The notes under the pieces: model-generated | The model's input: the letters and a program-made list of their open reading frames with translations, nothing else | Databases searched by the model: none | Told to the model about the DNA's origin: nothing | Shown here: positions 8,336-60,102 of the stretch, one piece after another | How the letters are laid out: each line of letters opens with the position of its first letter | How positions within the stretch are numbered: position 1 is the first letter of the stretch | DNA from: Candidatus Heimdallarchaeum aukensis | GTDB taxonomy: Archaea; Asgardarchaeota; Heimdallarchaeia; Heimdallarchaeales; Heimdallarchaeaceae | Length of the DNA stretch: 64,000 bases | Direction of reading: 5' to 3' | Assembly (NCBI GenBank): GCA_021513695.1 | Contig: CP084166.1 | Span: forward strand, 544,001 to 608,000 | Translations under genes and position numbers: made by a program

Positions 8336-8617
8336 TTTTCAACCCTAGATACTCTAACTCTAAAGTAAATGCTTATTGAACATTTTCAAGATTTTAAATT
8401 TGAGTCACTTAATATTAAACAAAATACTAATTAACTTTTTCTACTAAACTTTGATTAATGTATAATCTGCACACATTAGGATGAAAGAAACTAAACTGTT
8501 TTTAGAGAAAAAATTCAAAATAAATGAACCACATTCAGTTATAACTAAAAAAATTCAGTGATTTTAATTAATATGTATGCTTCACAAAAACAACATGAGA
8601 TTTTCAACATTCTTTTT

Positions 8618-11875: not shown

Positions 11876-12044
11876 TATTTCATTTTAAAGTAGTTTATTT
11901 ATCAAGTTCAACTTGCATAAAAGAATACAAATAAAACTAATACGAAAAATCGATGAAAAACATAAGATTCACAGAATGGATAAAATAAGACAGAAAAAAA
12001 ATATAATATTTCATATTTTTTTCTAAAAACTAAAATTAGTGAAA

Positions 12045-18723: not shown

Positions 18724-19245
18724 CTATACAGTCCGAAGGAGTAAAAGGTAGTTGTAACAGAGGAGAGAACTATAAAGAGTAGAAAGAATGGTGGAGGGTA
18801 AGTGATCAAGGATTGGGGGAAGAGAGAGTTTGAGGAGACCAAAGACGTGTTCAATACTACTACGATACTCGGGGTGATGATTATGGCGATAGAGACCAGG
18901 GTAGAGACGATGAGCTTGAACTATTGATCCGAGAGGAGGAGAGGGATAACGAGCATTACTTTTTGGGGGAATAACAGGGAAAAAGGAATGTTGTCTAAGA
19001 AGACCGACGATATTTTCTGTCCAGTTGGCACAGTCTCCATAAAATCTCAAGAGCGGTCTCAAGAGTGCAGAAGGAAGTTTCTGCCATAGTAAACCGAAGA
19101 CTTTACTATCGTGAGTGTTACTAGCAGAATGAGCTAAAGAGATTATAGCTCTGGAGGGTAAACCAACTATAAGGTGTATCTTCCAGAAAAGTTTAGTTTG
19201 GAGGTTTTCTTTAGTCCTCCTCTTGCCCACTTGAGAAAACGCCAA
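18724..19245 (-). CDS. IS5-like transposase orfB (C-terminal DDE part). It is probably expressed by frameshifting or is a pseudogene.
   Basis: SIEHVFGLLK...RYE-like C-terminal motif. Confidence 0.6.
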   Translation of the reverse strand: MAFSQVGKRRTKENLQTKLFWKIHLIVGLPSRAIISLAHSASNTHDSKVFGLLWQKLPSALLRPLLRFYGDCANWTENIVGLLRQHSFFPVIPPKSNARYPSPPLGSIVQAHRLYPGLYRHNHHPEYRSSIEHVFGLLKLSLPPILDHLPSTILSTLYSSLLCYNYLLLLRTV

Positions 19246-24562: not shown

Positions 24563-25276
24563 ATGTTTCATGACTTTCAAGTTCAAGATGGTATTAACCT
24601 TTACAATTCCAATGGTTTTATTATAAAAAATAATACCATTTCCTATGGCGGGTATGGACTATTTGTATCTGAATCTTCACACGGGGTATATACTAATAAT
24701 ACTTGTATAGAAAATAGCAAATATGGTGTTTATATAAAATATGGATACAACATTTCTATCAATGAAAACAACTGCAGCGCTAATGATCAAGGTATAAATC
24801 TTTACAACTCTTCTACAATTTATATCCACAATAATAGCATAAGTAAAAACACTATTGGACTGACTTTTGATCTCTCTAATCATTCAATCATCACTTTTAA
24901 TTCATTTGAGAAGAATGAACAATATGCAATAATTATGGATTCTTCATCTTCTTCTAATCTCATCCATCATAATACGTTTATTGACAACAACTTGCAAGGA
25001 ACATCTCAAGCTTGTGATAATGGTCATAATAATACTTGGTATGACCAATCAACAAAAACTGGTAATTATTGGTCTGATAGAAAAGGGATAGGAAAATATT
25101 ACATAGATGGTAATAGTAAATCGTATGATAAATACCCCCTAAAAAATCTCCCTCAACAATGTGCTGAAAAAACTTCTATTGATTTTCTCATCATTCTGAT
25201 CTCTTTTCTCTCTACAGTTATTTTGTCTTATGTCATAAGAAACAAGTATGCATTCAGACAATTACGATTTAGATAG
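24563..25276 (+). pseudogene. 5'-truncated duplicate of the beta-helix surface protein gene at 32042-33466 (corresponding to its region ~32780-33466)
   Basis: About 93% nucleotide identity by direct comparison. The fragment begins mid-domain at ...DFQVQDGINLYNS and abuts the subtilase fragment on the opposite strand. Confidence 0.65.
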
Positions 25277-25279
25277 GTT

Positions 25280-25560
25280 TTATCCATCAGCTAATCCAAT
25301 CACTTCTCCTCTCTTAGTGAGATAAACATCAATTTCCGCTGCTTTTTTTGCTATAACATAGTCAATAGGTAGTATATCAAATCTAGATAAGTCCTGCTCA
25401 GCTTCCTCAAGTTTATTTGAAAATATAGCTGGCTTGTTACTATAAAGATAGTATATACCGCGTAAATATTCTTGGGCAGTAATCACAGATATGGCTTTAT
25501 AGCTTGGCCCCCTATCAATTTGCTTTGCTTTTTCTAAAGCATTTGGAACAGAGTTTGATA
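25280..25560 (-). pseudogene. Possible PIN-domain (VapC-like) fragment, truncated at its 3' end by the duplicated segment
   Basis: ...FDILPIDYVIAKKAAEIDVYLTKRGEVIGLADG* resembles the middle of a PIN domain. The ORF stops 4 nt from the junction. Confidence 0.3.
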
Positions 25561-25916: not shown

Positions 25917-26981
25917 TTAATTATCATAGAATCGTAAATAGAAATAACTGCTAGGATCACCATCTTCAAGTACAGGAACAGAAGTGTAGGCATCAACATA
26001 ATCTTTTATTGTGTCAAAAACATTTTCTAAGTCAAGGTCAAAATTTATCCATTCACAACTGGAGCTATCCCAGTATTGTTTTATAAAATAACCTGTAAGA
26101 GCTCCATGGTAGTTGCTTCCATCCGGCATATAATTAAAGAATTTAGCTTGAGTAGTTTCATTGTATCTACACGCTGCAATCATAAGTACATTCTCTGAGG
26201 CTTGAATAGACATTATTTCATTCATTCCTCCAGAAAAGCATGAATCAATAAAAACAAGTAATTTTGATTCATAAGTCGTAGTTGAATCAGAACAAGCAAA
26301 TTTATCAAAAAGTATCTTTAAATTATAGTCATAAAGAAATTCATCTATTCCATAAGCTTGAACACTATGCTCTTCTTCATTATAACTATATCCATGCCCC
26401 GAGTAAATAAAGAATATTAAGTCATTTGGATCAGAATTTTCAACAACATTAGCTGTAACATCGTAAATATTTTGTAGTGTTGCTTGATGATAATCAAAGT
26501 TAAAGATACCACCTCCAGGACCTGATGTGTCAGGTAAATCAAAAAGACTTTCTCGATTTACAGATTCTTCGTGGCCAAGTAGGTGAACATTCATAGAAAA
26601 AGAAACAATATCATAAGTTTCTGGTTGTTGATCAAATAATTCAAAAAGAGCTGAAGCCCACATACACCATAAAATTGCATCTTCCCACGCACCAGCACAA
26701 TATTGTCCAGTTTGATCTTGACCAATACCGATAATAATAAACTCTGCCTTAATTTTATTGTCAGTGCCACTAGGATAGTCTATTACTGGAATAGTTGGTC
26801 CATTAACTCCTCCCCCATCACCGGTACCAGGATCAAGTTCAAAACCTTTTGTCAATAAGACTTCTTGAAAGAGTGTATTATTTATACTAGAACATAGTAA
26901 TGTCGATAAAATAAATAACGTAATAAAAATATTTTTATTAATTTTATTCACAGACCTATTAAAAAAATAACAACATCCCAT
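25917..26981 (-). CDS. Secreted caspase-fold cysteine peptidase (C14/C13-like)
   Basis: Signal peptide present. His-Gly dyad in FFIYSGHGY and catalytic Cys in VFIDSCFSGG. Confidence 0.6.
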   Translation of the reverse strand: MGCCYFFNRSVNKINKNIFITLFILSTLLCSSINNTLFQEVLLTKGFELDPGTGDGGGVNGPTIPVIDYPSGTDNKIKAEFIIIGIGQDQTGQYCAGAWEDAILWCMWASALFELFDQQPETYDIVSFSMNVHLLGHEESVNRESLFDLPDTSGPGGGIFNFDYHQATLQNIYDVTANVVENSDPNDLIFFIYSGHGYSYNEEEHSVQAYGIDEFLYDYNLKILFDKFACSDSTTTYESKLLVFIDSCFSGGMNEIMSIQASENVLMIAACRYNETTQAKFFNYMPDGSNYHGALTGYFIKQYWDSSSCEWINFDLDLENVFDTIKDYVDAYTSVPVLEDGDPSSYFYLRFYDN

Positions 26982-30967: not shown

Positions 30968-32026
30968 ATGAGCAATAATAAACATACTACAATCGCATTA
31001 ATAATAGTCATATTGTCATTAGCTCTTGTTTTTATTAAACCAACAGGAGCTGGTTGGGTAGAATGGGAAGGGAAAGTGTATAATGAATGGAATAATGGAG
31101 TAAGTGGAGCAATAGTAAAACTAAAACAGAATAATGTTGTTGTTAAAACAACAACCACAGATAGTAATGGGGAATATTCTCTCATATACTATACTTCTAG
31201 CTATGCTACATACAAAATTACAGTGACTAAGGAGGATTATAATAGTCAAACAAAGACTGTTCCCAAGACTTCCCTTGGAGAACCCTGGGTTGTAGATTTT
31301 AATATTCGCTATGTTATGAAATATGCTGTGATCGTGGGAATAGAAGATTATGCTTATCTTAATGATTTACAGTATACAGAAAATGATGCAGATGCTTGGT
31401 ACGACTTCTTATGTGATACATCTTTAGATTTCGATGAAGTGGATCTATATAAAGGTAGTAATGCATATGAATCCGCCATCAAAAACGCTTTAGAAAATAT
31501 GGTAAATATAGCTGATAAAGGTGACATTATTGCATTTATTTTCTCAGGGCATGGTTATAAAAAAAGTAGTACTGAACATGCCCTTTCTATGTGGGATGCT
31601 GATGGTAATGGTAACACAGGTTACTTATATGATTCAGAACTAGCAACTATTTTAACTAGTTCAGAAGCTGAAAGAATATTTCTATTTTTTGACTGTTGTT
31701 ACAGCTATGGAATGCAAGAGGAGTTGGCAGAGATAGGAAGCAAAGATCATATCCTTCTTACTAGTTCTTGTGATAAAAATGAAATTTCCTATTATGACAA
31801 AGCAAATGAAAAGAGTTGTTGGACGCAAAGTTTTTTAGTAGAATCATGGATTAATAATAATGAGCCAGAAGATCCTGTAATAGATGTTTTCAACGATGCA
31901 ATAATTTATTTCAGAGCCCATATAACTAATGGAGATGATTATTACTCAACGGATCAGAATCCGCAATTGTGGAACCCTTATGGAAACAATTTTCGATTAA
32001 CTAAGTATGGAATCTCACCACCATAA
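30968..32026 (+). CDS. Secreted caspase-fold peptidase with an N-terminal carboxypeptidase-regulatory-like (transthyretin-like) domain
   Basis: VKTTTTDSNGEYSL motif. His-Gly in IFSGHGY and Cys in LFFDCCYSYG. Confidence 0.6.
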   Translation: MSNNKHTTIALIIVILSLALVFIKPTGAGWVEWEGKVYNEWNNGVSGAIVKLKQNNVVVKTTTTDSNGEYSLIYYTSSYATYKITVTKEDYNSQTKTVPKTSLGEPWVVDFNIRYVMKYAVIVGIEDYAYLNDLQYTENDADAWYDFLCDTSLDFDEVDLYKGSNAYESAIKNALENMVNIADKGDIIAFIFSGHGYKKSSTEHALSMWDADGNGNTGYLYDSELATILTSSEAERIFLFFDCCYSYGMQEELAEIGSKDHILLTSSCDKNEISYYDKANEKSCWTQSFLVESWINNNEPEDPVIDVFNDAIIYFRAHITNGDDYYSTDQNPQLWNPYGNNFRLTKYGISPP

Positions 32027-32041
32027 GGAGAGAAAAAAAGT

Positions 32042-33466
32042 ATGAAACTAAATAAAAAAGTGTTGACTATAATATTGTGCACAATCATCTTACTGTTAGT
32101 AGGTACTTCAAATACAACTAGAGCAGTTCATCAAGAAAAGAACAGATTCGCACATACATTACACACCAATATTAGTTTAATCACTCCAATTAATATCACC
32201 TCTGATGAAGATTTCTCTAAGTATGCATATGATGGTTCAGGAAGAGAAGAGGATCCATATATAATTGAGGGATATGAAATAACAGGGCAGGATGTTACAG
32301 GGATATACATAGCGAATACTACGAAATATTTCATCATACGTGACTGTGTTATTGAAGGTACTAGTCAAGGAATTCATATTGTAAATGTGTCGGATGGGAC
32401 AGCATTAATCACAAATAATATTTGTAAAAATATAGTAAACCAAGGTATAATCGTTGAAAACACTAATTATGCGATATTACATAACAATACTTGTAGTGAA
32501 TCTAATATGTATGGCATCCATAGCCGATTCTCAGATTACCTTATATTGGAACAGAATACTTGTAATAAAAACGGAATGTGTGGAATTTTTGTAGATTACT
32601 CAACTTCGACTGTGATTAGGAAGAATATTGTTATTGATAATGTGCTCTCAGGTATTATTGTACAAGATACAGTAAAAACTCTCATCTCCCAGAATTATTG
32701 TTTTGATAATGATGGCATGGGTGGAATAGTGCTCTCAAGATCTCTAAATGCGACAATTATAAACAATATTTGTGTTGATGACTTTCAAGTTCAAGATGGT
32801 ATTAATCTTTACAATTCAGATGGTTTTATTATAAAAAATAATACCATTTCCTATGGCAGGTATGGAATATTTGTATCTGAATCTTCACACGGGGTATATA
32901 CTAATAATACTTGTATAGAAAATAGCAAATATGCTGTTTATATAAAATATGGATACAACATTTCTATCAATGAAAACAACTGCAGCGCTAATGAGCAAGG
33001 AATAAATCTTTACAACTCTTCAACAATTTATATCCACAATAATAGTATAAGTAAAAACACTATTGGACTGACTTTTGATCTCACGAATCATTCAATCATC
33101 ACTTTTAATTCATTTGAGGAGAATGAACAATATGCAATAATTATAGATTCTTCATCTTCTTCTAATCTCATCCACCATAATACGTTTGTTGACAACAACT
33201 TGCAAGGAACATCTCAAGCTTGTGACAATGGCAATAATAATACCTGGTATGACCAATCGACAAAAACTGGTAATTATTGGTCTGATAAAAAAGGAGGAAA
33301 ATATTACATAGATGGTAGTAGTAAATCGTATGATAAATATCCCCTAAAAAATCCCCCTCAACAATTTGCTGAAAAAACTTCTATTGATTTTTTCATCATT
33401 CTTATATCTTTTCTCTCTTCTACAGTTATTATGTCTTATGTCAAAAGAAACAAGTATGCTTTATGA
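32042..33466 (+). CDS. Beta-helix (PbH1/NosD-like) repeat surface protein with a C-terminal TM anchor (474 aa). It is a paralog of the beta-helix domain of receptor genes A and B.
   Basis: Repeated right-handed beta-helix units (...NNxCxxN..GI.L...). GTSQACDNG...GNYWSD cap and C-terminal hydrophobic helix. Confidence 0.7.
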   Translation: MKLNKKVLTIILCTIILLLVGTSNTTRAVHQEKNRFAHTLHTNISLITPINITSDEDFSKYAYDGSGREEDPYIIEGYEITGQDVTGIYIANTTKYFIIRDCVIEGTSQGIHIVNVSDGTALITNNICKNIVNQGIIVENTNYAILHNNTCSESNMYGIHSRFSDYLILEQNTCNKNGMCGIFVDYSTSTVIRKNIVIDNVLSGIIVQDTVKTLISQNYCFDNDGMGGIVLSRSLNATIINNICVDDFQVQDGINLYNSDGFIIKNNTISYGRYGIFVSESSHGVYTNNTCIENSKYAVYIKYGYNISINENNCSANEQGINLYNSSTIYIHNNSISKNTIGLTFDLTNHSIITFNSFEENEQYAIIIDSSSSSNLIHHNTFVDNNLQGTSQACDNGNNNTWYDQSTKTGNYWSDKKGGKYYIDGSSKSYDKYPLKNPPQQFAEKTSIDFFIILISFLSSTVIMSYVKRNKYAL

Positions 33467-33727
33467 CAATTATGAGTGATTCGAATGTTAAGGTTATTAC
33501 CCAGATGTTAAATTCTAGTTAAGCTAGTTATTCAGCTAGTGCAGCTGCTTTAGGAAGCATTAAATCTTTGTTTATTGTTCTTCTTTTAGTTTTCTACTTT
33601 GGCTTAAAGTTTAAATATTCTATATGAATGAAAAAAATCAATTTTACTCTTGTAGGACTTGCAATCATTTTATCTGGATGCGATTAAGAATTTTTTAATA
33701 ATACATATGAATGTATATGTGATTAAG

Positions 33728-36116: not shown

Positions 36117-39100
36117 TTACACCGCTGTTGCCCACTCTTCACCAAACAACTGTGCTTGCTCCATTATTAATTTAATCGCATTAGGAGTTTGATCTGGTGG
36201 ATATTTATACTTTCGCAATAGTTTACGAATCTCAATACGCATGCGAGCTTGAACACTTTTTCTTACTGTGAAATCAATTGTAGCAGAATTTCGAACCTTA
36301 GCAACTAACTCTTTTGCTATTTTCTTTAATGTTTCATCACCCATTTCTCTTACAGCACTTTCATTTGTAGCTAAAGCATCATAAAAAGCAACTTCATCAT
36401 CATTTAATCCAAGTTCTTCTCCCTTTTTGAAAGCTTTTTGCATATCTTTCGCTAATTGAATCAATTCCTCTAAAATTGCAGCAGAAGCTATTGTACGATT
36501 GATATATTTGTTAATAGATTTCTGAAGTAATTCCTCAAAAGAACGAGATTGAACTAAATTCTTTTTAGCTCTAGAACGAATTTGATCCTTCAACAATTTA
36601 TTTAAAACCTCAACAGCTAAATTCTTTTGTTTTAATCCTCTAACTTCTTCAAGAAATTTATCAGAAAGAATAGAAATTTCTGGTTTATCCAATCCTGCTG
36701 CAGAAAAAATGTCTATAACATCTTCTGAAATAACAGCTCTAGAGATTAATTGTCTAATTGCATAATCAACTCTTTCTTTACGTTCTTTGGAAGGAGTAGT
36801 AGCTTTTACAAAACCAGCACGTACAGCTTGGAAAAAAGCTAAATCATCTCGAATAGCTAAAGCTTCTTCATGAGGAATAGCAAGAGAAAAGGCTTTATTT
36901 AGTGCTGAAAGGTTATCTAAAAACCTTTTTTTAGCACTTTCTGGAGTTTCATTAGGTAAATTAAGAATATGTTCCATAGCAGCAGGAAGTAATTGTAATC
37001 TTTGTAAAGCACTTCCTGTTTTAAACAAAGAATAATCAAAATTGTAAAACATATCTGAAACAATTTCATAATATGTTTTCATTAATTCTACAGCTTTTTC
37101 TTGAGGAATAGCTGTTTGTTCTCTTGACTCTACATTAGAATACCTAGATAATGCTTGCTTAAGAAAATAACCTATACCAATATAATCGACAATAAGACCT
37201 CCAGGTTTATCTTTATATACTCTATTTACTCTAGCTATCGCTTGCATTAAATTGTGTCCTTGCATTGGCTTATCTACATACATTGTATGCATACTAGGCA
37301 CATTAAAACCTGTTAACCACATATCTCTTACAATAACAAGTTTAAGTTCGTCCTCAGGATCTTTCATTCGATTTTCAATAATTTTTCTTTTTCTTTTAGG
37401 CCTAATGTGTGAACGCAATAATTGATCATCAGCAGCAGAACCGCTAATTACAACTTTAATGAAACCTTTTTGATCATCATTAGAATGCCACTCAGGCCTT
37501 AGTTTTATTATTTCATTATACAATAAAGCACAAATCCTGCGAGACATACAAACAATCATACCCTTTCCATCTATAATCTCAAGTCTTTTTTCAAAATGAT
37601 TTACAATATCCTCAGCTACTTCACGTAACCTATCGGGATCAGAAACAAGCCTTTCGACTCTTGACCACTTAGATTTCAATTTTTCTCGAGCATATTCTTC
37701 TTCATCTTCTGTGATTTCATCAAATTCTTCATCGATTTGACCCTTCAATTCTTCATTAAACTTAATTTTAACTAACCTTGATTCATAATAAATAGGAACA
37801 GTAGTTTTATCTCTTATTGCTTGTGAAATATCATAAATGCTAATATAATTACCAAAAACATGAATCGTATTTCTGTCGACAAGTTCTACAGGAGTAGCAG
37901 TAAAAGCAATAAAAGAAGCATTAGGCAGAGCTTGACGAATATAAGCAGCAAAACCTTCTTTTAATGAACCTTTTTCAGAAAGTTTTTTTCCAAAAGAATA
38001 ATGACTTCTATGAGCCTCATCAGCAATAACAATGATATTCCTCCTCTCAGATAAAAGAGGATATTGTGCATTCTCTTCAGGAAGAAATTTTTGTATTGTA
38101 GTGAAAATTACACCACCACCGGTTGTTTTAAGCAAATCCTCAATATTATCTTTTGTCGCTTCATGATTTTTTGGATTGTACCTCCTTGCTGTGGCTTGAA
38201 TAGAAGTTTGACGAAGAAGATCCCTTGATAAAGTAAAAGTTGTAAAAAGTTGGTCATCTAAATCGTTTCTATCAGTAATAACAACGACAGTAGGATTGTT
38301 AAGTAGCTGGATTAACTTTGCGGTATAAAATAACATTGTAAGACTCTTACCAGAACCTTGAGTATGCCAAACAACACCAATCTTTTGATCACCATCACTT
38401 CCAGTAGCTCGTAAAGTTTCCTTAATAGCACGATTAACAGCATGATATTGATGATAAGCAGCAGATTTCTTGACTATTGTTCTACCATCGTCTTCAAAAG
38501 TAATAAAAAATCTGATGTAATCTAAAAAACGAGAAGGTTCTAAAATACCACGAAATAAAACTTCAAGAGATAAGATTGATTGGTCAGCTAATATCTCTCC
38601 CTCAATAGTGCGCCAGGGAGTAAAACGCTCCCAATTAGCAGATAAACTGCCAGCTTTAGATTCATAACCATCACTAATAACAATTAACTCATTAGTCCTA
38701 AATAAAGAAGGAATTTCTTTTTTATAAGTCTGAATTTGATTATAAGCATCTCTTGTAGTCGTTTCTTCTTTAGATGGGTTCTTAAGCTCAATAACTACTA
38801 AAGGAATACCATTAACAAAGAGAACAATATCAGGTCGGTGATTGTGTTTGTCAGAACCAACACCTTCTATAACAGTAAATTGATTTACAGCTAAAAAATC
38901 ATTATTCTCAGGATTCTCAAAATCAATAACTCGTACTATATCTCCCTTTACACGACCATCATGGTAATAAGAGACTTCTACACCATCAACTAACATTCTA
39001 TGAAAAGAACGATTGTTTGTTAATAAATCAGGAGAATCAATACGGTTGAGTTTCTGCAAAACATCTTCAAGCACTTCTTTAGGTTTATCAGGATTAAGTT

Positions 39101-39272
39101 TATGTAAAGCTGATTTTAGTCTATCTTTAAGAATAATCTCACTATATGATAACCTTTCAGGATTATTTCCTGTTGGTGCAATATCTGGACCAAACTTGGT
39201 ATCATAACCTAATTCTCTTAAAATTTCCATAGATGCTTCTTCTAACTCTTTTTCAGTTATTTTCATAATCAA
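36117..39272 (-). CDS. hsdR: Type I restriction enzyme R subunit (HsdR)
   Basis: 1051 aa. Superfamily-2 helicase motifs are present (GSGKS-type Walker A in WHTQGSGKSLT, DEAH-type IVIADEAHRS). The C-terminal domain is typical of HsdR. Confidence 0.9.
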   Translation of the reverse strand: MIMKITEKELEEASMEILRELGYDTKFGPDIAPTGNNPERLSYSEIILKDRLKSALHKLNPDKPKEVLEDVLQKLNRIDSPDLLTNNRSFHRMLVDGVEVSYYHDGRVKGDIVRVIDFENPENNDFLAVNQFTVIEGVGSDKHNHRPDIVLFVNGIPLVVIELKNPSKEETTTRDAYNQIQTYKKEIPSLFRTNELIVISDGYESKAGSLSANWERFTPWRTIEGEILADQSILSLEVLFRGILEPSRFLDYIRFFITFEDDGRTIVKKSAAYHQYHAVNRAIKETLRATGSDGDQKIGVVWHTQGSGKSLTMLFYTAKLIQLLNNPTVVVITDRNDLDDQLFTTFTLSRDLLRQTSIQATARRYNPKNHEATKDNIEDLLKTTGGGVIFTTIQKFLPEENAQYPLLSERRNIIVIADEAHRSHYSFGKKLSEKGSLKEGFAAYIRQALPNASFIAFTATPVELVDRNTIHVFGNYISIYDISQAIRDKTTVPIYYESRLVKIKFNEELKGQIDEEFDEITEDEEEYAREKLKSKWSRVERLVSDPDRLREVAEDIVNHFEKRLEIIDGKGMIVCMSRRICALLYNEIIKLRPEWHSNDDQKGFIKVVISGSAADDQLLRSHIRPKRKRKIIENRMKDPEDELKLVIVRDMWLTGFNVPSMHTMYVDKPMQGHNLMQAIARVNRVYKDKPGGLIVDYIGIGYFLKQALSRYSNVESREQTAIPQEKAVELMKTYYEIVSDMFYNFDYSLFKTGSALQRLQLLPAAMEHILNLPNETPESAKKRFLDNLSALNKAFSLAIPHEEALAIRDDLAFFQAVRAGFVKATTPSKERKERVDYAIRQLISRAVISEDVIDIFSAAGLDKPEISILSDKFLEEVRGLKQKNLAVEVLNKLLKDQIRSRAKKNLVQSRSFEELLQKSINKYINRTIASAAILEELIQLAKDMQKAFKKGEELGLNDDEVAFYDALATNESAVREMGDETLKKIAKELVAKVRNSATIDFTVRKSVQARMRIEIRKLLRKYKYPPDQTPNAIKLIMEQAQLFGEEWATAV

Positions 39273-40092
39273 TTTCCGCCAAAAATTTTTCTATATTAGT
39301 AATTCGAAGCCTACCTGAGATAAGTTGAGGAAGTAGAATATCTCTTAATTTAATTAAAATATTAATTTCATCCTTATTTTTTCTAATTTTTTCAAAGATT
39401 GGGTCAATTATTTCTCTAAACTTTAGTAAAGTAGTCTTATCAGGTTTTATAATCGGAATCCTAAAAAGGTTACTTTGATTAATTTTTAATTGTACTGCAC
39501 CAGTTATATAAGGTCTAATGTTTATATTCATGAGATGTAACATAACAAATTCTGTACAAAATTCATTTTTTCCTTGTATTACATGAACATGATTATTCGC
39601 CCAAAATTTTCCATGTACATATTGTAAGATGGGTTTTTCATTGTTATCAATAACTGAACCATCTTCTGCCATTAAGAGAAAAATGCCATCAAAAATGTAA
39701 TCATCAATATAGTCTAAAATACTAGCTGCCCCATAATATGGATAAATACCTTTTCTTACCTTTCTTTCTATTTTTGATAAAGGAATTCTTTTTGAATCAT
39801 ATATACTTATGACTTCTTTGAGCGTCCCAACTTCCCATCCTTTTGGTATTTCTTTATCTACTTCCTCATTATATTCAAATTCGCCATCTTTGAAAGGTTC
39901 AAAATCAATAAACCAAGATCTGAAGATAGTTTGGGCTATCTCTTCTAAAACTTTGTTCATCTTCTGATTGAGTTCAATTTTTTGATCTATAGAGCTTAAT
40001 AATTTACTAATAAATTTTTGTATTCTTAAATTAGGTATAGGAAGTGGGATATTTTCAATAATTGAGGTATTTAAGGAAGGTCTAGTAGTACC
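39253..40092 (-). pseudogene. hsdS: Type I restriction-modification specificity subunit (HsdS), truncated at its 5' end by IS6 insertion. Only the central conserved region, the second target-recognition domain and the C-terminal conserved region remain.
   Basis: The annotated ORF (39253-39960) starts MNKVLEEIAQTIFRSWFIDFEP, which is the HsdS central conserved region. The frame remains open upstream (…ENIPLPIPNLRIQKFISKLLSSIDQKIELNQK) up to the IS right end at 40093. The 235 aa are about half the normal HsdS length. Confidence 0.75.
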
Positions 40093-40854
40093 GGTAGTGT
40101 CTAGTTTTCTTCCGACAAAAATATTTGTGGGGACTCTAATAGTAAGATATGAACATTCAAAAACTATCTACTCTTTTTAAGAGATGCAGAGTCCCCAAAA
40201 AAATAATAATAAAAGCTATTTATGAATATATTGGTTCAAAGAATGGGTTGAGGACAGTAGCATGGAAGAATGGTTTAACGCATCAAACATTATGGTATTG
40301 GGTAAAGAAGTTCAGGCTCTTTAGGGAAAGTTTACATAGAGTTGTAGCAGAGAGAGGGGGAATACCAGAGATTATAGTAGTAGATGAAACAGAGATTAGG
40401 ACCTCTCAAGGCTCAATATATCTGTGGTTCGCGTTAGATCCTTACAACAAGACTTTACTGGGTTTTAGTATTACTAAAGGACGGAGTAATCTTGAATGTT
40501 TACTAACTTTCCGTTATTGGCTCAAATGTTGGGGTTTTAAGCCTCGTATTGTCGTTACAGATGCAGGAGTATGGTATCCTGTCTTACTTCGTCTAGGTAT
40601 CAAAATCTCCGTTATCAAAGGTGGTTTACGCTCCTATATTGAACGTTTTAATGCTACTCTTAAGAGTTATCGTTGGTTTCATTCTATTCTCCACTGCACT
40701 TGTCCTATCCGTGCCGTCTATGGCTCTACTCATCTTTCTGGTTTTCTTACTCTCTTTATGCTCTATTATAATTTCGTTCGTCCTCATCAGAGCTTAGGAC
40801 ATCCTCCCCTTAGTTCCTTTTTACCTAGGAGGTGGTATAAAAACTAGACACTAC
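40093..40854 (+). mobile_element. IS6-family insertion sequence, copy 2 (intact). It has 16-bp terminal inverted repeats GGTAGTGTCTAGTTTT / AAAACTAGACACTACC and no flanking direct repeat.
   Basis: Inverted repeats read directly. The flanks (ctagtagtacc and agtcaaaaatag) differ from each other. Confidence 0.85.
40149..40847 (+). CDS. IS6-family DDE transposase (232 aa)
   Basis: VVDETEI...RIVVTDAGVWY...SYIERFNATLKSYR fits the IS6 D-D-E pattern. Confidence 0.85.
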   Translation: MNIQKLSTLFKRCRVPKKIIIKAIYEYIGSKNGLRTVAWKNGLTHQTLWYWVKKFRLFRESLHRVVAERGGIPEIIVVDETEIRTSQGSIYLWFALDPYNKTLLGFSITKGRSNLECLLTFRYWLKCWGFKPRIVVTDAGVWYPVLLRLGIKISVIKGGLRSYIERFNATLKSYRWFHSILHCTCPIRAVYGSTHLSGFLTLFMLYYNFVRPHQSLGHPPLSSFLPRRWYKN

Positions 40855-41122
40855 CAGTCAAAAATAGAAAAAAAATATAAAAGGCTTTTCTAAATAACAA
40901 CATTAGTTAAAGTATGTGGATTCTTACTAACAACCTTTGAATATAATTCATTTTTTATTTTTTGAATTATCTTCGCTCTATATTCCTCTTCTTTTTTGAA
41001 TCTAAATTAAACAATATAATTTTGTTCAACAGATAATTTTATATTGGGTTATAACCCATTACCGCCCAGAAGTCTAAAAAATAAAATAAGAGGCGATAAA
41101 AATAGGATATGGATCAGGAAGA

Positions 41123-41524
41123 ATGCGTGGTGGAGGAAGAGGAAGAGGAGGAGGATTTGGATTAGGAGCAGGAGGAGCATGTATTTGTCCAGTGTGTGGT
41201 ACAAAAGCTGCTCATGCAAGAGGGGTACCTTGTTTTCAATCTCGATGCCCACAATGTGGAGCACCAATGACTAGAGCAGAAGCTTATGCCGGCCCCCAAC
41301 CACAGAATAGTAAAAACGTACAAGAAGAGAAAGAATACAAATTTGATACAGCAGCAAAACCGCATATAGACCAATCTAGATGTAAGGGGTGTGCTTTATG
41401 CATTAATAGTTGTCCTTTTAATGTTATTAGAATGGAAAATGGTCATGCAATTATTGATTCTTCACGCTGCAGAAGTTGCGGAGTATGTATTTCTTCTTGT
41501 CCTGAAGGGGCGATAGTTTATTAG
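41123..41524 (+). CDS. Small protein with a Gly/Arg-rich N-terminus, a zinc-ribbon (CICPVCG...CPQCG) and 2x[4Fe-4S] ferredoxin motifs
   Basis: CKGCALCINSCP and CRSCGVCISSCP clusters. It is convergent with the nuoI-like gene. Confidence 0.6.
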   Translation: MRGGGRGRGGGFGLGAGGACICPVCGTKAAHARGVPCFQSRCPQCGAPMTRAEAYAGPQPQNSKNVQEEKEYKFDTAAKPHIDQSRCKGCALCINSCPFNVIRMENGHAIIDSSRCRSCGVCISSCPEGAIVY

Positions 41525-41556
41525 AAAATGTAAAAAAAAATTAAAAAATACTCTTT

Positions 41557-41934
41557 TTATATTTTTAGTGGATCAATAATTATACTTTCTTTATCAAAAG
41601 TTGCCAAGTAAAAGTCTTCTGTTAAAGTGAGACAACCAGTTGGACAAATATCTTGACATAGTGCACAGAAGCAACATTTTCCTAAATCTATTTGTGGATA
41701 AGTTTTTGGGTATTTCTCTTTATATTCTTCTTTTACTTCTACCATCTTTATCGCTTTATTTAAACAAATTTTGGCACAAGATCCACAAGAGATGCAGTTA
41801 TCGATGTCAAACTTATGTTTTGCTCTCTCTCTTTCTGATATCTCTACTTTCTCCATTGGAAAAAGAACAGTCATTGGTCTTTTGAACAAATTCTTGAATA
41901 TTTCTGAAATAATACTTAGTTTCATTGTTATCAC
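41557..41934 (-). CDS. 2x[4Fe-4S] ferredoxin subunit (NuoI / EchF-like)
   Basis: CISCGSCAKIC and CCFCALCQDICP clusters. It lies last in the co-oriented gene set with 2-bp spacing. Confidence 0.7.
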   Translation of the reverse strand: MITMKLSIISEIFKNLFKRPMTVLFPMEKVEISERERAKHKFDIDNCISCGSCAKICLNKAIKMVEVKEEYKEKYPKTYPQIDLGKCCFCALCQDICPTGCLTLTEDFYLATFDKESIIIDPLKI

Positions 41935-41935
41935 C

Positions 41936-43048
41936 TCATCTATCTACATCAGCAGGACATTGGTTTAAACTCCAATAAATAGCAGGGACGTCAGCATAAT
42001 AAGAATCAGTAAGTAAATGCTTTAAAATAGGTATCATGTGAGTAAAAGAAGGTCCTCTGATCTTAACTCTATAAGGAGTCTTTTTTCCTGTAGCAATCAT
42101 ATAAATAGCTCCTTCTCCTCTTGATAGTTCATTACGTGTATAGGTTTCTCCTTTAGCTTTGCGGAAGTGAACAATAGGTTTCATATTAGACGTTTTTACT
42201 TCCCCTTTTGGCATTCTGTCAATTGCTTGCTTAACTATCTTCTTGCTTTCTTCTATTTCTTGCATAGCTATCAAATATCTTGAATAAGCATCTCCTTCAT
42301 CAAAAACTGGAATTTCAAACTCCAATTCATCATAAATTTCATAAGGATCATCTCTTCTAACATCTGAAGCAACCCCGCTAGCCCTTAAAATAGGTCCTGT
42401 TGCACCTAGTTTAATAGCTTCTTCTTTCGTTAACACTCCTACTTCTTTGAATCTTTCCAACCATACAGGATTTTCTTTTTTTGCGAATTTATGCATATAG
42501 TCAATCTTTTCAAATAAAGTAAGAATCTTTTTTTCTGCTTTCTCTGGTAAATCTTTTCTTACTCCTCCAGGGCAGATATATCCAGCTGGATAAAGTCTTC
42601 CTCCAGTAATATAATCGAACACATCTAGCATATAGTCTCTGTATCCCATTGCAACATTAAATCCAGTAGTAAATCCTGTTCCCATTGACATTACAGCGTA
42701 CCATATAAAGTGCGATTGTATTCTTGACAGTTCTGCAAGTATAACTCTGATGTATTTAGCTCTTTCTGGGATATCATAACCCATTAAAGTATCAACAGCT
42801 TCTGCATGGAGAAGATTCCACTGAAGAGGTTCTAAAACACATATTCTATCTGATAATACAGAGTTTTGCATTGGTTCTCTATATTCCATTAACTTCTCAA
42901 AACCCCTATGTAAATATCCTGGATCAACTACAGCTTTCATCACTCTTTCTCCACGAAGCTGAACTCTCACTGAAAAGTTTCCTGAACCAGGGTGAGCTGG
43001 TCCAAAGTACATTTCAAAATCTCCTTGTCTTTCTTCTATTTCAGTCAT
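41936..43048 (-). CDS. NuoD / [NiFe]-hydrogenase large-subunit homolog lacking the Ni-binding cysteines (Ehr-like)
   Basis: 370 aa. The L1 motif is degenerate (RICVLEP instead of RxCGxC). The L2 motif is degenerate (NQCPADVDR instead of DPCxxCxxH). Confidence 0.8.
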   Translation of the reverse strand: MTEIEERQGDFEMYFGPAHPGSGNFSVRVQLRGERVMKAVVDPGYLHRGFEKLMEYREPMQNSVLSDRICVLEPLQWNLLHAEAVDTLMGYDIPERAKYIRVILAELSRIQSHFIWYAVMSMGTGFTTGFNVAMGYRDYMLDVFDYITGGRLYPAGYICPGGVRKDLPEKAEKKILTLFEKIDYMHKFAKKENPVWLERFKEVGVLTKEEAIKLGATGPILRASGVASDVRRDDPYEIYDELEFEIPVFDEGDAYSRYLIAMQEIEESKKIVKQAIDRMPKGEVKTSNMKPIVHFRKAKGETYTRNELSRGEGAIYMIATGKKTPYRVKIRGPSFTHMIPILKHLLTDSYYADVPAIYWSLNQCPADVDR

Positions 43049-43593
43049 TTTTTCACCTCAAAATAAATATCTTCTCGGGGATTACTTTCATCATAATATT
43101 CTTGTTGTACATATTTTCGCCAGTCGAAGTCCTTTCTAAACGGAGGAGGGCCAGTCCAGTCTTCCAACATTAGTGGAGTAAGATTAACGTTTCCTTCAAA
43201 AATCACGCCATAAAACTCATGGCATTCTCTTTCACATAATTCTGCATTTTTACTCCATAGAGAAGTAACAGAAGATATTGTAGGATTTTCTCTATTTATC
43301 CTTGTTTTTATCGTTAAAAGCATTTTTTCTTTATAGGACCATAAATGGTAAGCAATTTCAAAATTATTCTTTTCAATCCAATCTGTAACACTTATTGTAG
43401 AAAGATGTTCAAAACCCATATCATAAGCAATCGAACAAGCATCTACTATTTCTTTAGGTTCAATAGATACCCAAAGTCTTTTTTTTCTTTGGATATTAAC
43501 CTTCTTGTTTAATTTCTTACTTAAAGCCGTTACAATTTTTTCTTCTTTATCCAAATTATTCTTCTCTTTCTCTACTACACTCATTTTACTCAC
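43045..43593 (-). CDS. NuoC (30-kDa subunit) homolog
   Basis: 182 aa. It overlaps the flanking genes by 4 nt, consistent with translational coupling. Confidence 0.65.
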   Translation of the reverse strand: MSKMSVVEKEKNNLDKEEKIVTALSKKLNKKVNIQRKKRLWVSIEPKEIVDACSIAYDMGFEHLSTISVTDWIEKNNFEIAYHLWSYKEKMLLTIKTRINRENPTISSVTSLWSKNAELCERECHEFYGVIFEGNVNLTPLMLEDWTGPPPFRKDFDWRKYVQQEYYDESNPREDIYFEVKK

Positions 43594-44030
43594 TCATCCG
43601 GCATTCCATGAACATGTTGAACTATTTTGAAAACAGCATCAAAAACAGCTTCAGGTCTGGGAGGACAACCAGGAATATACATGGTTACAGGAAGATAATC
43701 TTCAAGCTTCTTAACAGTGTTATATGAATCCCAATACATCCCACCTGTTATTGGACATGAACCCAATGCTAAGACAAACTTTGGATCAGGCATTTGCTCA
43801 TAAATCTTTTGTGCTCTCTTCATTGATTTTGGTGTCTGAAAACCAGCAATAAACAACACATCAGCCTTTCTTGGTGAATTAACTGTTATCATTCCAAAAC
43901 GTTCCATATCCCATCTTGAACCTACAACTGGAACAAGTTCAGTAAATCCACAAGAGTTAAACCAATTAAAAACCCAAATAGCTTTTACAAAATATTTCAT
44001 CACAGTTTTCTTCTTAACCATCCTTTCCAC
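43590..44030 (-). CDS. NuoB (PSST, N2-cluster) homolog / hydrogenase small-subunit-like
   Basis: NSCGFTE, GSCPITGG and GCPPRPE cysteine motifs. Confidence 0.8.
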   Translation of the reverse strand: MERMVKKKTVMKYFVKAIWVFNWFNSCGFTELVPVVGSRWDMERFGMITVNSPRKADVLFIAGFQTPKSMKRAQKIYEQMPDPKFVLALGSCPITGGMYWDSYNTVKKLEDYLPVTMYIPGCPPRPEAVFDAVFKIVQHVHGMPDE

Positions 44031-44398
44031 TTTCTTCTCTTTTGTTTAGAAACACTATACACGAATTCTTGCTATAATTATTTAAAAAAAAATTTACTTA
44101 CATATATCTTTTAGGGTAAGAATTTAATCGTGTTGCTATACTTACAAGCCCAAAAATGATAAAATAGGTCAAGGACTTTTCGGATAACCGAACATTAATC
44201 AGTATAAATACTTGCCTAATCATGTGAATAATTATGCACATGGTCAAAATGGTGATAACTGCGAATTAATCAATGAAATAGGTGTTTAAGAAAAAGCACT
44301 TCTACTTTGAAAAAGAAAAATAAATGAAAATAGTAAATCCAAAAAGTTACAGTAAATAGATAAAAATATAATAAAAAAGAAAATAAAAGACATCTAAG

Positions 44399-46156
44399 TT
44401 ATGATTTATAACTCCCATATAGATAAAGAAATCGTTCTAAATAGTACAAGAAAACTTGATTGAAATAACCGGGAAAATAAATATCAGCTGCGTGACCTGC
44501 ATATGGAAAAGTTAGTAAAGCACAATCTGTTTTTCCAGTGCCTAAATAAGCATTTTTTATTATCTCTGACTCTTCAATCAATCTATCTTTTTCTCCTTGA
44601 AATATCAAACAAGGAGGAGAGCTCTCATTGATCAATATACTTGGATTGACCCATTCGTCCTTACTTTTTGTTGCAAACTCATATTTAACATTGTTTGCAG
44701 GATAATAAGGAATTATTCCTTTTATCCTTAATTTATTTGAAAAAATTTCAGTATAATTTCCAGAATCTATGCTTAGCGCAGTAGCTAAAGCGAGTTGCCC
44801 TCCTGCAGAACTTCCAGAAATAAATACTTTATCTAAATTTGCTCCGTATTCTTCCGCATGCTCTTCCAAGTAAAAAGTGAAATTACCTATTTGTCGAATC
44901 ATATCGTCAATAGTAAATTGTCCATAAACATTTTCTGGTCCGATTTTTAGCTTTCCAAAAACTGGTGTCTCATTATTTAGTCCGTATTGGATGTCAAAAA
45001 CACAGTATCCTTGTGCTGCAAGATATCTATTCATCATTTGTACATTAAGCTGTCCCTTATCTCCAAGAACCCACCCTCCTCCGTGAATTCTTATAATTGT
45101 TGAATTTTTTCCAGGTAAGGTTTCACTTGTTTGTTTCGGTAAGTAAGCATCAAAATAGAGTTTAATATCTTTATCAACTGAATAATTACTTTTGCTACCA
45201 TTAAAGTAAAGCACATCTGTTATAACTTGAACATCAAATTTTCCAATGCCAAAAAAGTATCCTGTTAGTTGAAAAGGATCATCGAGAAAATAATCTGTAA
45301 AACTAGAATTTTCTATAACTTTTTTCCAATCACCATCAAAATAAGGATTAAAAGCGTTTGAGAATTCTAATTCTGCTTGTTTTATTGTATAAGGAGTATA
45401 AGCTACTGGAACAAAAGAGAGAGAAGTAAAGGTTAACCCAAAAACTGCTATTAAGGCAATTTTTGCCTTAAAATATTTAGATCTCTTATTTGAAATGTTG
45501 ATGAGTGTAGATGAAGAGTTTAAAACTATTAAACCAATAAAAATCCCTGCAGGAGCAACAAAAACGCTTAACAAAAAGAAGAAAGTGTTTTGCATTCTTG
45601 GAGCAAAAAATATTATCGATGTAACTATCCCTAAACTCAACCCCAATAACGCCAAAATTAAAAGAATGACTTTAGCTATTTTACAAACTATTGTACCCTT
45701 TTCTTTTTCTTTTTCTTTTTCTTTTTCTGTGTTTTCTAGTTGATCTTTTATTCTTCTTTTTTTCACTAACCAGTAAAGACTTATAAAAGCAGGAAAAGAA
45801 AATAAAAACAATAAACTAAGAACAATCGCAACAGAAAAGATCACATTTATAGATTTGACAGGTGTGAAACCTGTAAAATTAACAAAAAATAGTACAATAA
45901 AGGAAAGAAAAGAGAAAACAAAGTAAAGGTATGATAGAATTCTAATATCACTTTTTTGTTTCGGCGATTCTAATTGTTTTGAGTTCAGGAAAGACAAAAA
46001 GAAGTAATTAAACATAATTGTAAATATAATGAATAATCCATTAATATTCCAAATTAAAGAATTTGAGGGATTTGCTAAATAAATTGAGCCTGTGATAATA
46101 TTTAGAACATTGATTATAATTGAAAATATGGTTATGTACAAAGGAAACTGTTTCAT
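44399..46156 (-). CDS. Polytopic membrane protein with a C-terminal alpha/beta-hydrolase (esterase/lipase, HGGG-type) domain
   Basis: IIRIHGGGWVLGD oxyanion motif and GSSAGGQLA (GxSxG) nucleophile elbow. An N-terminal multi-TM region contains a (KE)n linker encoded by a (ttttct)n repeat near 45700-45730. Confidence 0.7.
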   Translation of the reverse strand: MKQFPLYITIFSIIINVLNIITGSIYLANPSNSLIWNINGLFIIFTIMFNYFFLSFLNSKQLESPKQKSDIRILSYLYFVFSFLSFIVLFFVNFTGFTPVKSINVIFSVAIVLSLLFLFSFPAFISLYWLVKKRRIKDQLENTEKEKEKEKEKGTIVCKIAKVILLILALLGLSLGIVTSIIFFAPRMQNTFFFLLSVFVAPAGIFIGLIVLNSSSTLINISNKRSKYFKAKIALIAVFGLTFTSLSFVPVAYTPYTIKQAELEFSNAFNPYFDGDWKKVIENSSFTDYFLDDPFQLTGYFFGIGKFDVQVITDVLYFNGSKSNYSVDKDIKLYFDAYLPKQTSETLPGKNSTIIRIHGGGWVLGDKGQLNVQMMNRYLAAQGYCVFDIQYGLNNETPVFGKLKIGPENVYGQFTIDDMIRQIGNFTFYLEEHAEEYGANLDKVFISGSSAGGQLALATALSIDSGNYTEIFSNKLRIKGIIPYYPANNVKYEFATKSKDEWVNPSILINESSPPCLIFQGEKDRLIEESEIIKNAYLGTGKTDCALLTFPYAGHAADIYFPGYFNQVFLYYLERFLYLYGSYKS

Positions 46157-59634: not shown

Positions 59635-60102
59635 ATGAAAAATTACTCAAAATTAATTAAATTTTCTACAGTAATAGCACTACTAGGATTCTTAGTTTCA
59701 CTTTTTCTTTTGTATTCTGAACTAACAAATTCATTTTATTGCGTAATTGAAAAACAATTTTTTGACTGTGCAGAAGTAAATAGAAGCTCTTATGCTACTA
59801 TTCTTGGAATACCAATAAGTCTTATGGGAGCTGTTTACTACTTATTTATTATTATAACTGCAATAATGATAACTAAACAGGTAAAAGAAAAGCTCTTACT
59901 TGATATTTTACTTCCTGTAACTACAACTGCTGGGTTAATTTTCTCTGTCTATTTGACTTTAATAGAAGCATTGGTAATAAAAAAATTCTGTGAATATTGT
60001 TTAACATCAGCAATTTGTAGCCTTATCTTGGCTTTAATTTACTTAATAAGACCTATTGCTAAACTAAAAAAATTCACAGCTAGAAAGGTAAATACAAGCT
60101 AA
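59635..60102 (+). CDS. VKOR-like (vitamin K epoxide reductase family) membrane thiol oxidoreductase
   Basis: Loop cysteines (YCVIEKQFFDC) plus a TM CxxC (CEYC) across 4 TM helices. Confidence 0.55.
   Translation: MKNYSKLIKFSTVIALLGFLVSLFLLYSELTNSFYCVIEKQFFDCAEVNRSSYATILGIPISLMGAVYYLFIIITAIMITKQVKEKLLLDILLPVTTTAGLIFSVYLTLIEALVIKKFCEYCLTSAICSLILALIYLIRPIAKLKKFTARKVNTS

Follow-up and report, generated by a model that had tools for sequence, protein, structure and literature searches.

Judged from sequence matches, the closest solved relative of three of the four proteins described here is MBS, the membrane-bound sulfane-sulfur reductase of Pyrococcus furiosus (6U8Y). MBS, formerly Mbx, contains a proximal [4Fe-4S] cluster ligated by cysteines C28, C93 and C123 of the MbsJ subunit (PMC7684303). 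A further MbsJ cysteine, C25, lies beyond ligand distance, and cleavage of S-S bonds is catalyzed at the cluster's open iron (PMC7684303). Mutants C25A and C85A/C385A are still active. An engineered soluble form of the enzyme (C-MBS), which stays in the supernatant at 100,000 x g, is also active, with 1.8 U/mg in the reduction of dimethyl trisulfide (PMC7684303). We analyzed a 64-kb stretch of the genome of Candidatus Heimdallarchaeum aukensis (contig CP084166.1, positions 544,001 to 608,000; hereafter, the window) in which four minus-strand open reading frames (ORFs; 44030-41557) encode NuoB-, NuoC-, NuoD- and NuoI-like proteins (B-C-D-I). C-MBS is reportedly composed of MbsJKLN and, because the diagnostic residues of the window proteins agree with those of MBS, B-C-D-I appears to encode a close natural counterpart of C-MBS.

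Among known archaea, Heimdallarchaeia are most closely related to eukaryotes, and the ways in which they dispose of electrons enter directly into syntrophy models of how eukaryotes arose. In current descriptions, H2 is the only form in which Heimdallarchaeum disposes of electrons. We tentatively favor the reading that B-C-D-I may be an S-S (polysulfide or disulfide) reductase of the cytoplasm that is driven by ferredoxin and operates like the engineered C-MBS, without a dedicated membrane arm. If true, such an enzyme would add a second route of electron disposal. The proposal rests on the homology to MBS and the precedent of C-MBS. Homology, the ligand pattern, conservation of the operon, purifying selection and the lack of neighboring membrane genes are documented below; solubility, the ferredoxin donor, the S-S substrate and any role of the three large-subunit cysteines are inferred.

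Organization of the gene cluster

Translation of the window ORFs gave four consecutive genes, which match the following families and structures:

43590..44030, minus strand: NuoB/MbsJ-like small subunit, 146 aa (Pfam Oxidored_q6, 6e-23; best PDB match 6u8y_J)
43045..43593, minus strand: NuoC/MbsK-like subunit, 182 aa (Pfam Complex1_30kDa, 1e-29; best PDB match 6u8y_K)
41936..43048, minus strand: NuoD/MbsL-like large subunit, 370 aa (Pfam Complex1_49kDa, 6e-72; best PDB match 6u8y_L)
41557..41934, minus strand: NuoI/MbsN-like subunit, 125 aa (Pfam Fer4_7, 2e-11; TIGR01971 NuoI, 1.6e-29)

The genes at the B/C and C/D junctions overlap by 4 bp, as described in a first-pass annotation made from the sequence alone, and the D stop and I start are separated by one base instead of the two reported there. 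The same annotation had recognized homologs of the peripheral arm of complex I and group 4 hydrogenases, in agreement with the Pfam and NCBIfam families of all four genes (NuoB, NuoC and NuoD for B, C and D; TIGR01971 NuoI for the 125-aa protein). It erred, however, in taking the 125-aa protein for the module's 'own ferredoxin', which the TIGR01971 match identifies as an integral NuoI/MbsN subunit. MBS is the closest solved relative by sequence for B, C and D, and nearly so for I.

Residues of the catalytic core

The large subunit matched MbsL best in the PDB (6u8y_L, 7e-87), followed by Nqo4 (4e-68), MbhL (8e-43) and HycE (8e-32). Its motifs RICVLEP (R68-P74) and NQCPADVDR (N362-R370) correspond to RICVPEP and CPPDIDR in MbsL. 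In the alignment, the first cysteine alone remains of each former Ni-Fe CxxC motif (C70, equivalent to MbsL C85, and C364, equivalent to MbsL C385). The second is substituted (E73 and D367), and the RxCGxC ... DPCxxC pattern of group 4 [NiFe] hydrogenases is absent. The first-pass annotation had therefore quoted both motifs correctly and rightly concluded that the protein is not a true [NiFe] hydrogenase, but it described the two CxxC motifs as lost when the site is half-lost, as in MbsL. The residues for quinone reduction are absent: V71 replaces Tyr87 (Nqo4 numbering), and His38 falls inside a one-residue deletion between S22 and G23.

Only three cysteines are present in the large subunit (C70, C159 and C364), and all are 100% conserved in the 29 members of the clade defined below. 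C159 is also specific to this clade, as is the invariant residue H81. We take the position five residues before C159 to be that of the N2-adjacent histidine of the 49-kDa subunit (Yarrowia H226/R231). As former terminal Ni ligands, C70 and C364 should sit close together, and it is tempting to speculate that the three cysteines form a thiol/disulfide relay or supply a fourth ligand. An AlphaFold2 model of the large subunit, based on an alignment limited to 26 close homologues, was poor (pLDDT 66, pTM 0.64, active-site segments <50) and was excluded as evidence. A Foldseek search of the PDB with this model returned TM ~0.53 for every 49-kDa/NuoD-type chain and did not discriminate among them, with 6u8y_L at rank 4 and with the top identity (38%).

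The small subunit aligned without gaps to MbsJ (6u8y_J, 1.5e-42; offset +1) and has the motifs FNSCGFTE, GSCPITGG and PGCPP. Its cysteines C27, C92 and C122 occupy the positions of the MbsJ ligands C28, C93 and C123, and F24 that of the non-ligating C25. We therefore predict a proximal [4Fe-4S] cluster with three cysteine ligands only (C27/C92/C122). The loop is as long as that of MbsJ. In the same alignment, the loop of hydrogenase small subunits has ~4 more residues, and their first CxxC motif on this long loop (GxCNGCD-IE) is missing here. The Fe-S ligands of this subunit, flagged earlier as worth checking, thus include three conserved cysteines but not the tandem Cys-Cys of cluster N2 of NuoB (FNSCGFTE versus GLACCAIE in the complex I reference locus L090). 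The NuoC-like subunit is closest to MbsK (6u8y_K, 1.2e-16). The NuoI-like subunit matched NdhI best (1.4e-23) and MbsN next (1e-21), and in its translation both [4Fe-4S] motifs are complete (C47/50/53/57 and C87/90/93/97). Ferredoxin is presumed to dock on this subunit, where electrons would enter.

These residues bear directly on the public annotation of the module. UJG41305.1 of Candidatus Heimdallarchaeum aukensis, whose sequence the large subunit matches exactly, was deposited as 'NADH-quinone oxidoreductase subunit D'. This name arises from a score of 381 bits with the NCBIfam model PRK06075 ('NuoD'), just over its cut-off of 360. The score and the deposited name would suit a canonical respiratory NuoBCDI (a quinone-reducing Q-module), yet we find this identity, or that of an active [NiFe] hydrogenase, hardly credible. 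The TIGR01962 NuoD model scores 314 against a cut-off of 459, and the Fpo models also score below theirs (FpoD, 296 versus 600; FpoC, 91 versus 220; FpoI, 82.5 versus 180). The tandem cysteines of the small subunit, Tyr87/His38 and the second cysteine of the Ni-Fe motifs are all missing, and true hydrogenases and complex I form separate clades with other motifs. Because both the defining residues and the curated score cut-offs fail, the module lies outside complex I, Fpo and the [NiFe] hydrogenases, and its public label as a respiratory 'NADH-quinone oxidoreductase' is contradicted by the sequence. The whole clade has probably been systematically mis-annotated as quinone-reducing NuoD.

Phylogeny of the module

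We collected 80 metagenomic loci with a large-subunit profile and classified their genes with seeds from Hdr genes and from L012, a canonical 11-gene Heimdall Nuo-like operon (L013 and L090 are likewise canonical 11-gene operons). The loci were compared in a neighbor-joining tree with p-distance-derived distances and 100 bootstraps (BS, bootstrap support). Its one biochemically characterized anchor, MbsL/MbsJ, was taken from the HMMER alignments. Motifs and tree cleanly separated four kinds of module:

True group 4 hydrogenases: large subunit RxCGIC / DPCxxC; small subunit GxCNGCD-IE, long loop
Complex I: large subunit DRLDY / GDVDR; small subunit ACCAIE
Large MBS/Mbx clade (BS 100): large subunit RICVPEPD / CPP[DE]IDR; small subunit [CG]TGCG
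Window clade (BS 100, 25 distinct sequences): large subunit DR[ILV]C[VI]LE / CPAD.DR; small subunit FNSCGF, also PGCPP

The window clade (BS 100) thus stands apart from canonical MBS, true hydrogenases and complex I; the complex I reference L090, for example, has DRLDYV and LGDVDR in place of RICVLE and QCPADVDR in the window. Most MBS/Mbx-clade loci with full flanks have ...K-N-M-H-B-C-D-I operons, and a few (L042 and L056) have B-C-D(-I) without such genes nearby, although these context labels depend on contig ends. The catalytic core of the window clade is at least 56-60% identical across Asgard archaea, Thermoplasmatota and Desulfobacterota. The branching order of its sub-groups is poorly supported (27-50%) and thus compatible with a soluble as well as a membrane-bound ancestry. 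A sister group (L032 9128-11128; also L046, L073 and L034) encodes a ~666-aa fusion of 2x[4Fe-4S], NuoB and NuoD domains (I-B-D) with the motifs RVCVLDG / NCPADHDR. No membrane genes lie within ~20 kb of the L032 fusion, and a NuoH gene adjoins that of L034.

Genomic contexts of the window clade

B-C-D-I stands alone in the Heimdallarchaeaceae subclade (BS 100) and in L010, L011, L017 and L021. Other members of the clade carry one of three additions, which narrows a partner that the first-pass annotation had called unknown: HdrA(MvhD)-HdrC-HdrB, NuoH alone or an MBH-like arm. NuoH lies directly upstream of B-C-D-I in L008 and L009 (order mbxM-J-K-L-N). Hodarchaeales short-arm Nuo-like operons (L094 and L095) contain a NuoH paralogous to that of L008, which suggests a lineage-specific recruitment. 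In L008, from a Hodarchaeales-like lineage, the NuoH beside B-C-D-I (cluster at 7825-11516) is 53% identical to that of the L095 operon (5730-13960), which lies on another contig of the same sample (ERZ26802894). The MBH-like arm (J-K-N-(2-TM MbhI-like)-B-C-D-I-H, where TM is transmembrane) occurs in L025, L026 and L029, and the NuoH of L025 is closest to Desulfobacterales/Thermodesulfobacteriota proteins. In L025 (221-8734, probably Desulfobacterales), two related clusters lie directly in tandem: the first resembles MBS (N, 2-TM, B, C, D, I, H), and the second has the signature of a true [NiFe] hydrogenase (2-TM, B, C, D, H). In the literature searched, no account of an MBS-type B-C-D-I cluster, either stand-alone or linked to Hdr, was found.

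The Hdr-linked relatives (L004-L007, L015, L018 and L019, one labelled Thermoplasmata) have HdrA with a C-terminal MvhD/FlpD domain (domain match 6e-35), HdrC and HdrB adjacent to B-C-D-I. Their large subunits are 63-65% identical to that of the window, and their operons contain no membrane genes. Because they carry soluble HdrA-HdrC-HdrB without membrane genes, the B-C-D-I core would therefore work in cytoplasmic assemblies. The seven-gene soluble MBS-arm/Hdr cluster spans 7629-13825 in L004 and L005 and 4042-10284 in L006, and also occurs in L015, L018 and L019. A 112-aa gene upstream of the Hdr-linked cluster was considered as NuoA-like but does not qualify, since no TM segment is predicted in its product, which resembles a helix-turn-helix/cysteine-rich regulator.

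The Hdr-linked loci raise the question of whether the module is a plug-in: a soluble Fe-S wire and ferredoxin port for a partner encoded elsewhere, such as an HdrABC-type bifurcating disulfide reductase, in the way that Mvh hydrogenase serves Hdr. B-C-D-I is indeed followed by, or divergent to, HdrA(MvhD/FlpD)-HdrC-HdrB in Thermoplasmata and related contigs, and a 133-aa protein encoded beside the window cluster has a ferredoxin domain that resembles the inserted ferredoxin domain of HdrA. However, no HdrB/C homologue was found in the window or the related Heimdall loci, and L017 and L021, two members of the Hdr-rich subclade, also have no adjacent Hdr. Furthermore, the open-iron, three-cysteine cluster and the three invariant large-subunit cysteines point to a catalytic site and not to a mere wire. 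For these reasons we regard a plug-in role as improbable.

Conservation of the cluster

The locus of H. endolithica PR6 (L001) is 96% identical at the DNA level, but only within window positions 41020-44461, which contain a zinc-ribbon ferredoxin gene and B-C-D-I; beyond this block its flanks are rearranged. An rve-type transposase gene (40149-40847) abuts the conserved block where synteny with H. endolithica breaks. The same four genes are present in two Heimdallarchaeota metagenome-assembled genomes (L002 and L003; 80% large-subunit identity) and in contig L014 (79%). Their neighbors are wholly different and include peptidases (TldD/PmbA and M32/M20), an oxidoreductase of the luciferase-like type and a TnpB-like protein. 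dN/dS values for the cluster were 0.04-0.22 against L002 and L003, with synonymous sites near saturation, and indicate strong purifying selection. Because the cluster is conserved in related genomes with such dN/dS values, it is not a chance feature. The same values and the intact overlapping ORFs excluded a pseudogene or decaying remnant. By these sequence comparisons, the four genes appear functional and kept as a unit without fixed neighbors.

Search for a membrane arm

Seeded tblastn searches of the 64-kb window, L001-L003, L010 and L011 returned no homologues of NuoA/H/J/K/L/M/N or HdrB/C, and Pfam scans of ~40 window ORFs found no membrane-arm family. Nor were membrane genes present within ~20 kb around the four related Heimdallarchaeaceae clusters (L001-L003 and L014), whose flanks are all different. 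Hence, the lack of adjacent membrane subunit genes noted in the first-pass annotation holds for the window and for all four relatives. Between Heimdallarchaeaceae and the NuoH-bearing loci, large subunits share 61-67% identity. Yet when the two clade-associated types of NuoH were used as queries, closed Heimdallarchaeum genomes and Heimdallarchaeaceae-labelled proteins were absent from the best 120 matches of each. Thus, the window and L001-L003 have neither the membrane anchor MbsM (NuoH) nor Mrp-like antiporter subunits in the same operon, and none of the complex I subunits NuoA, H, J, K, L, M or N is encoded at the locus, in contrast to L012, L013 and L090. This indirect evidence argues against a dedicated membrane anchor.

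Several observations nonetheless weigh against a soluble reductase, and most of them would fit a split operon, in which B-C-D-I is the peripheral arm of an ion-translocating MBS/MBH-like complex whose anchor (NuoH/MbsM) and antiporter-like subunits are encoded elsewhere or borrowed from an MBH operon. A precedent is the '2M' complex I of Chloroflexi, where nuoBCDI is split from the membrane genes yet serves a membrane complex. One MBH operon with maturation genes is reported elsewhere in the genome of Heimdallarchaeum (Wu et al. 2022), and B-C-D-I could conceivably share its MbhM anchor. The NuoH-linked Asgard loci L008 and L009 belong to a sister subclade in which they group (BS 94) with the stand-alone L010 and L011, and L025, L026 and L029 have the MBH-like arm within the same clade as the window. 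In addition, the beta1-beta2 loop and the N-terminal motif of NuoI, which contact NuoH in membrane complexes, are both invariant in the window module. Two other points concern the chemistry: MbsM completes the substrate chamber of MBS, whose C85A/C385A mutant retains activity (PMC7684303), and the strict conservation of C70, C364 and C159 is unexplained by the MBS mechanism alone.

We still consider a split operon unlikely. It would require membrane genes that did not appear in 64 kb of sequence, around four related clusters with different flanks or, from the closed Heimdallarchaeum genomes or any Heimdallarchaeaceae-labelled protein, among the 120 best relatives of either type of NuoH. The paralogy of the L008 NuoH to that of Hodarchaeales Nuo-like operons suggests that this subunit was recruited in one lineage. 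Finally, the invariant loops are also kept in the Hdr-linked, clearly soluble relatives.

Proposed mechanism and significance

The soluble S-S reductase that we favor would descend from the peripheral arm (MbsJ-K-L-N) of an MBS/Mbx-type respiratory complex. Reduced ferredoxin, from the general pool or in the form of the 133-aa zinc-ribbon ferredoxin, would dock on the NuoI-like subunit, and electrons would then pass through its two [4Fe-4S] clusters to the proximal [4Fe-4S] cluster of the NuoB-like subunit. With three cysteine ligands (C27, C92 and C122), this cluster would have one open iron that could bind and reductively cleave an S-S bond, as in MBS. Candidate substrates are polysulfide and organic tri- or persulfides, and possibly low-molecular-weight or protein disulfides. 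The reaction pocket would be lined by the NuoD-like subunit with its invariant C70, C159 and C364. Such an enzyme, of a kind otherwise known from ion-pumping membrane complexes, would not pump ions and could provide a fast, non-energy-conserving sink for reduced ferredoxin, handle sulfane sulfur or do both. No terminal electron-accepting pathway is discernible in Heimdallarchaeum (Wu et al. 2022). Because other such pathways are reported lacking, the role of electron sink would fit a fermentative archaeon of hydrothermal sediments.

A broader proposal, possible but rather doubtful, is that B-C-D-I is a free-standing, mobile 'S-S reductase cassette' derived from the complex I/MBS Q-module and equipped with a site like that of ferredoxin:thioredoxin reductase (FTR). 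This site would combine the open iron of the three-cysteine cluster with C70/C364 as a possible redox-active pair and C159 near the cluster. The cassette would have been re-partnered repeatedly (with nothing, NuoH, an MBH-like pump or HdrABC) and would serve as an unrecognized cytoplasmic electron sink in Heimdallarchaeum, which would revise the 'H2 only' picture of electron disposal.

For the evolution of complex I, a naturally membrane-free MBS-type module would, if true, be evidence that the catalytic arm is able to exist on its own and to be rewired, and its relatives, whether linked to Hdr, accompanied by NuoH only or fused into a single chain, would show the same. Together they would open the assembly scenario of a 'soluble redox module + Mrp antiporter' to experiment, and the window module would offer a compact, four-protein target for the study of catalysis by an Fe-S cluster with an open iron site.

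Neighboring genes and other features of the window

The sequences that border B-C-D-I are as follows:

41123..41524, plus strand: zinc-ribbon + 2x[4Fe-4S] protein, 133 aa, convergent (Pfam Fer4 families)
41525..41556, no strand: A/T-rich spacer of 32 bp between the convergent genes (sequence inspection)
44031..44398, minus strand: A/T-rich upstream intergenic region of 368 bp, presumed promoter (sequence inspection)
44399..46156, minus strand: membrane/esterase protein, 585 aa, upstream of the NuoB gene (ORF and Pfam)

With runs of T6 and T9 on the minus strand directly past the stop of the NuoI gene, the 32-bp spacer resembles an oligo-T terminator of archaea and would mark the end of the operon. 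The upstream intergenic region, the presumed promoter, contains a TTTAAATA element ~50 nt ahead of the NuoB start, although the A/T-rich background (genome ~30% GC; window GC ~30%) makes such a match weak evidence.

The first-pass annotation had named both an esterase gene and the convergent zinc-ribbon/2x[4Fe-4S] gene as flanks, and both are present; the esterase is, however, not a conserved neighbor, and the ferredoxin is one at the genus level only. We considered the upstream esterase/membrane protein as a possible anchor and rejected it: H. endolithica has only a 39-aa remnant before NuoB, with a 58%-identical copy at a distance of ~7 kb, and L002 and L003 lack the gene. The 133-aa protein combines a Gly/Arg-rich N-terminus, a four-cysteine zinc ribbon and a 2x[4Fe-4S] ferredoxin domain. 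Its gene adjoins B-C-D-I in the 3.4-kb syntenic block shared with H. endolithica, and the gene and the cluster carry neighboring accession numbers in four genomes. Adjacency is thus kept at about the genus level; neither L002 nor L014 has the gene. In L003, a zinc-ribbon-only relative is encoded by a separate ~84-aa ORF (8524-8778, minus strand) that lies divergently upstream of NuoB. Pfam returned no convincing family for the Gly/Arg-rich, double-CxxC zinc-ribbon half; its weak generic zinc-ribbon matches did not bear out an assignment to DUF5320. The 133-aa protein is a possible dedicated electron donor or partner of the module.

Elsewhere in the window we identified three transposase genes, two rve-type and one DDE_Tnp_1 (the one at 40149-40847 mentioned above, 15062-16000 and 18724-19245). 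A remnant of a type I restriction-modification system (36117-39960, minus strand) comprises a full-length HsdR (1051 aa) that overlaps a single-domain HsdS (235 aa), with no HsdM evident beside them. Clustered genes for large secreted-type proteins (NosD/beta-helix domains and bacterial TSP3 repeats) and two caspase-like (Peptidase_C14) genes lie at 5636-13541, 24563-25276, 32042-33466, 25917-26981 and 30968-32026. Positions 24572-25282 and 31806-33475 match one and the same stretch of L001 and are thus paralogous copies. A VKOR-family membrane protein (59635-60102) adjoins a membrane H+-pyrophosphatase (60314-62413). Quinones are the usual partners of VKOR homologues, an oddity in an organism said to have no respiratory chains.

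Comparison with known systems

The first-pass annotation assigned the module to the 'Ehr class', reportedly the energy-converting hydrogenase-related complexes. Like these, the window module is kin to group 4 hydrogenases with an incomplete Ni-Fe site. The label is, however, too vague, as three of the four subunits match MBS best and carry MBS diagnostic residues. Ehr are membrane complexes with antiporter-like subunits, none of which is linked to the window module, and the label is silent on the three-cysteine catalytic cluster that groups the module with MBS.

As in MvhAGD-HdrABC, the relatives with 63-65% identity place a hydrogenase-derived pair of large and small subunits beside HdrA(+MvhD)-HdrC-HdrB. 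The window module differs in having no Ni-Fe site, so that it cannot use H2, and no Hdr genes are adjacent in Heimdallarchaeum. The '2M' complex I of Chloroflexi likewise has its Q-module genes apart from those of the membrane arm. Its motifs are those of a genuine complex I, and its membrane genes are elsewhere in the genome, whereas the window motifs are MBS-like and no dedicated arm was detected in the searches described above. A preprint on Asgard complex I treats NuoBCDI only as an arm of membrane complexes with active [NiFe] sites (10.1101/2024.07.04.601786). Those complexes correspond to L012-type operons and not to the window module.

FTR, an analogue named in the MBS paper, also cleaves S-S bonds with an accessible-iron [4Fe-4S] cluster beside redox-active cysteines. 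Its fold is unrelated, and its likeness to the window module is one of putative function only.

MBS itself remains the closest match. Both have the peripheral gene order J-K-L-N (B-C-D-I), two vestigial large-subunit cysteines in the absence of the quinone Tyr/His, a shortened small-subunit loop with the three cysteine positions of the proximal cluster, and two [4Fe-4S] clusters in the NuoI-type subunit. At the level of sequence, the module thus has all the features of an MBS catalytic arm except the linked membrane arm, since the MbsM anchor and the Mrp-like, nine-subunit membrane arm of MBS do not adjoin it. The two also differ in their large subunits, which are ~38% identical in the Foldseek comparison with the poor model and fall in separate BS-100 clades. 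Finally, the window clade has its own signature (DR[ILV]C[VI]LE, CPAD.DR, FNSCGF and PGCPP), the extra invariant residues C159 and H81, and a phenylalanine in place of MbsJ C25.

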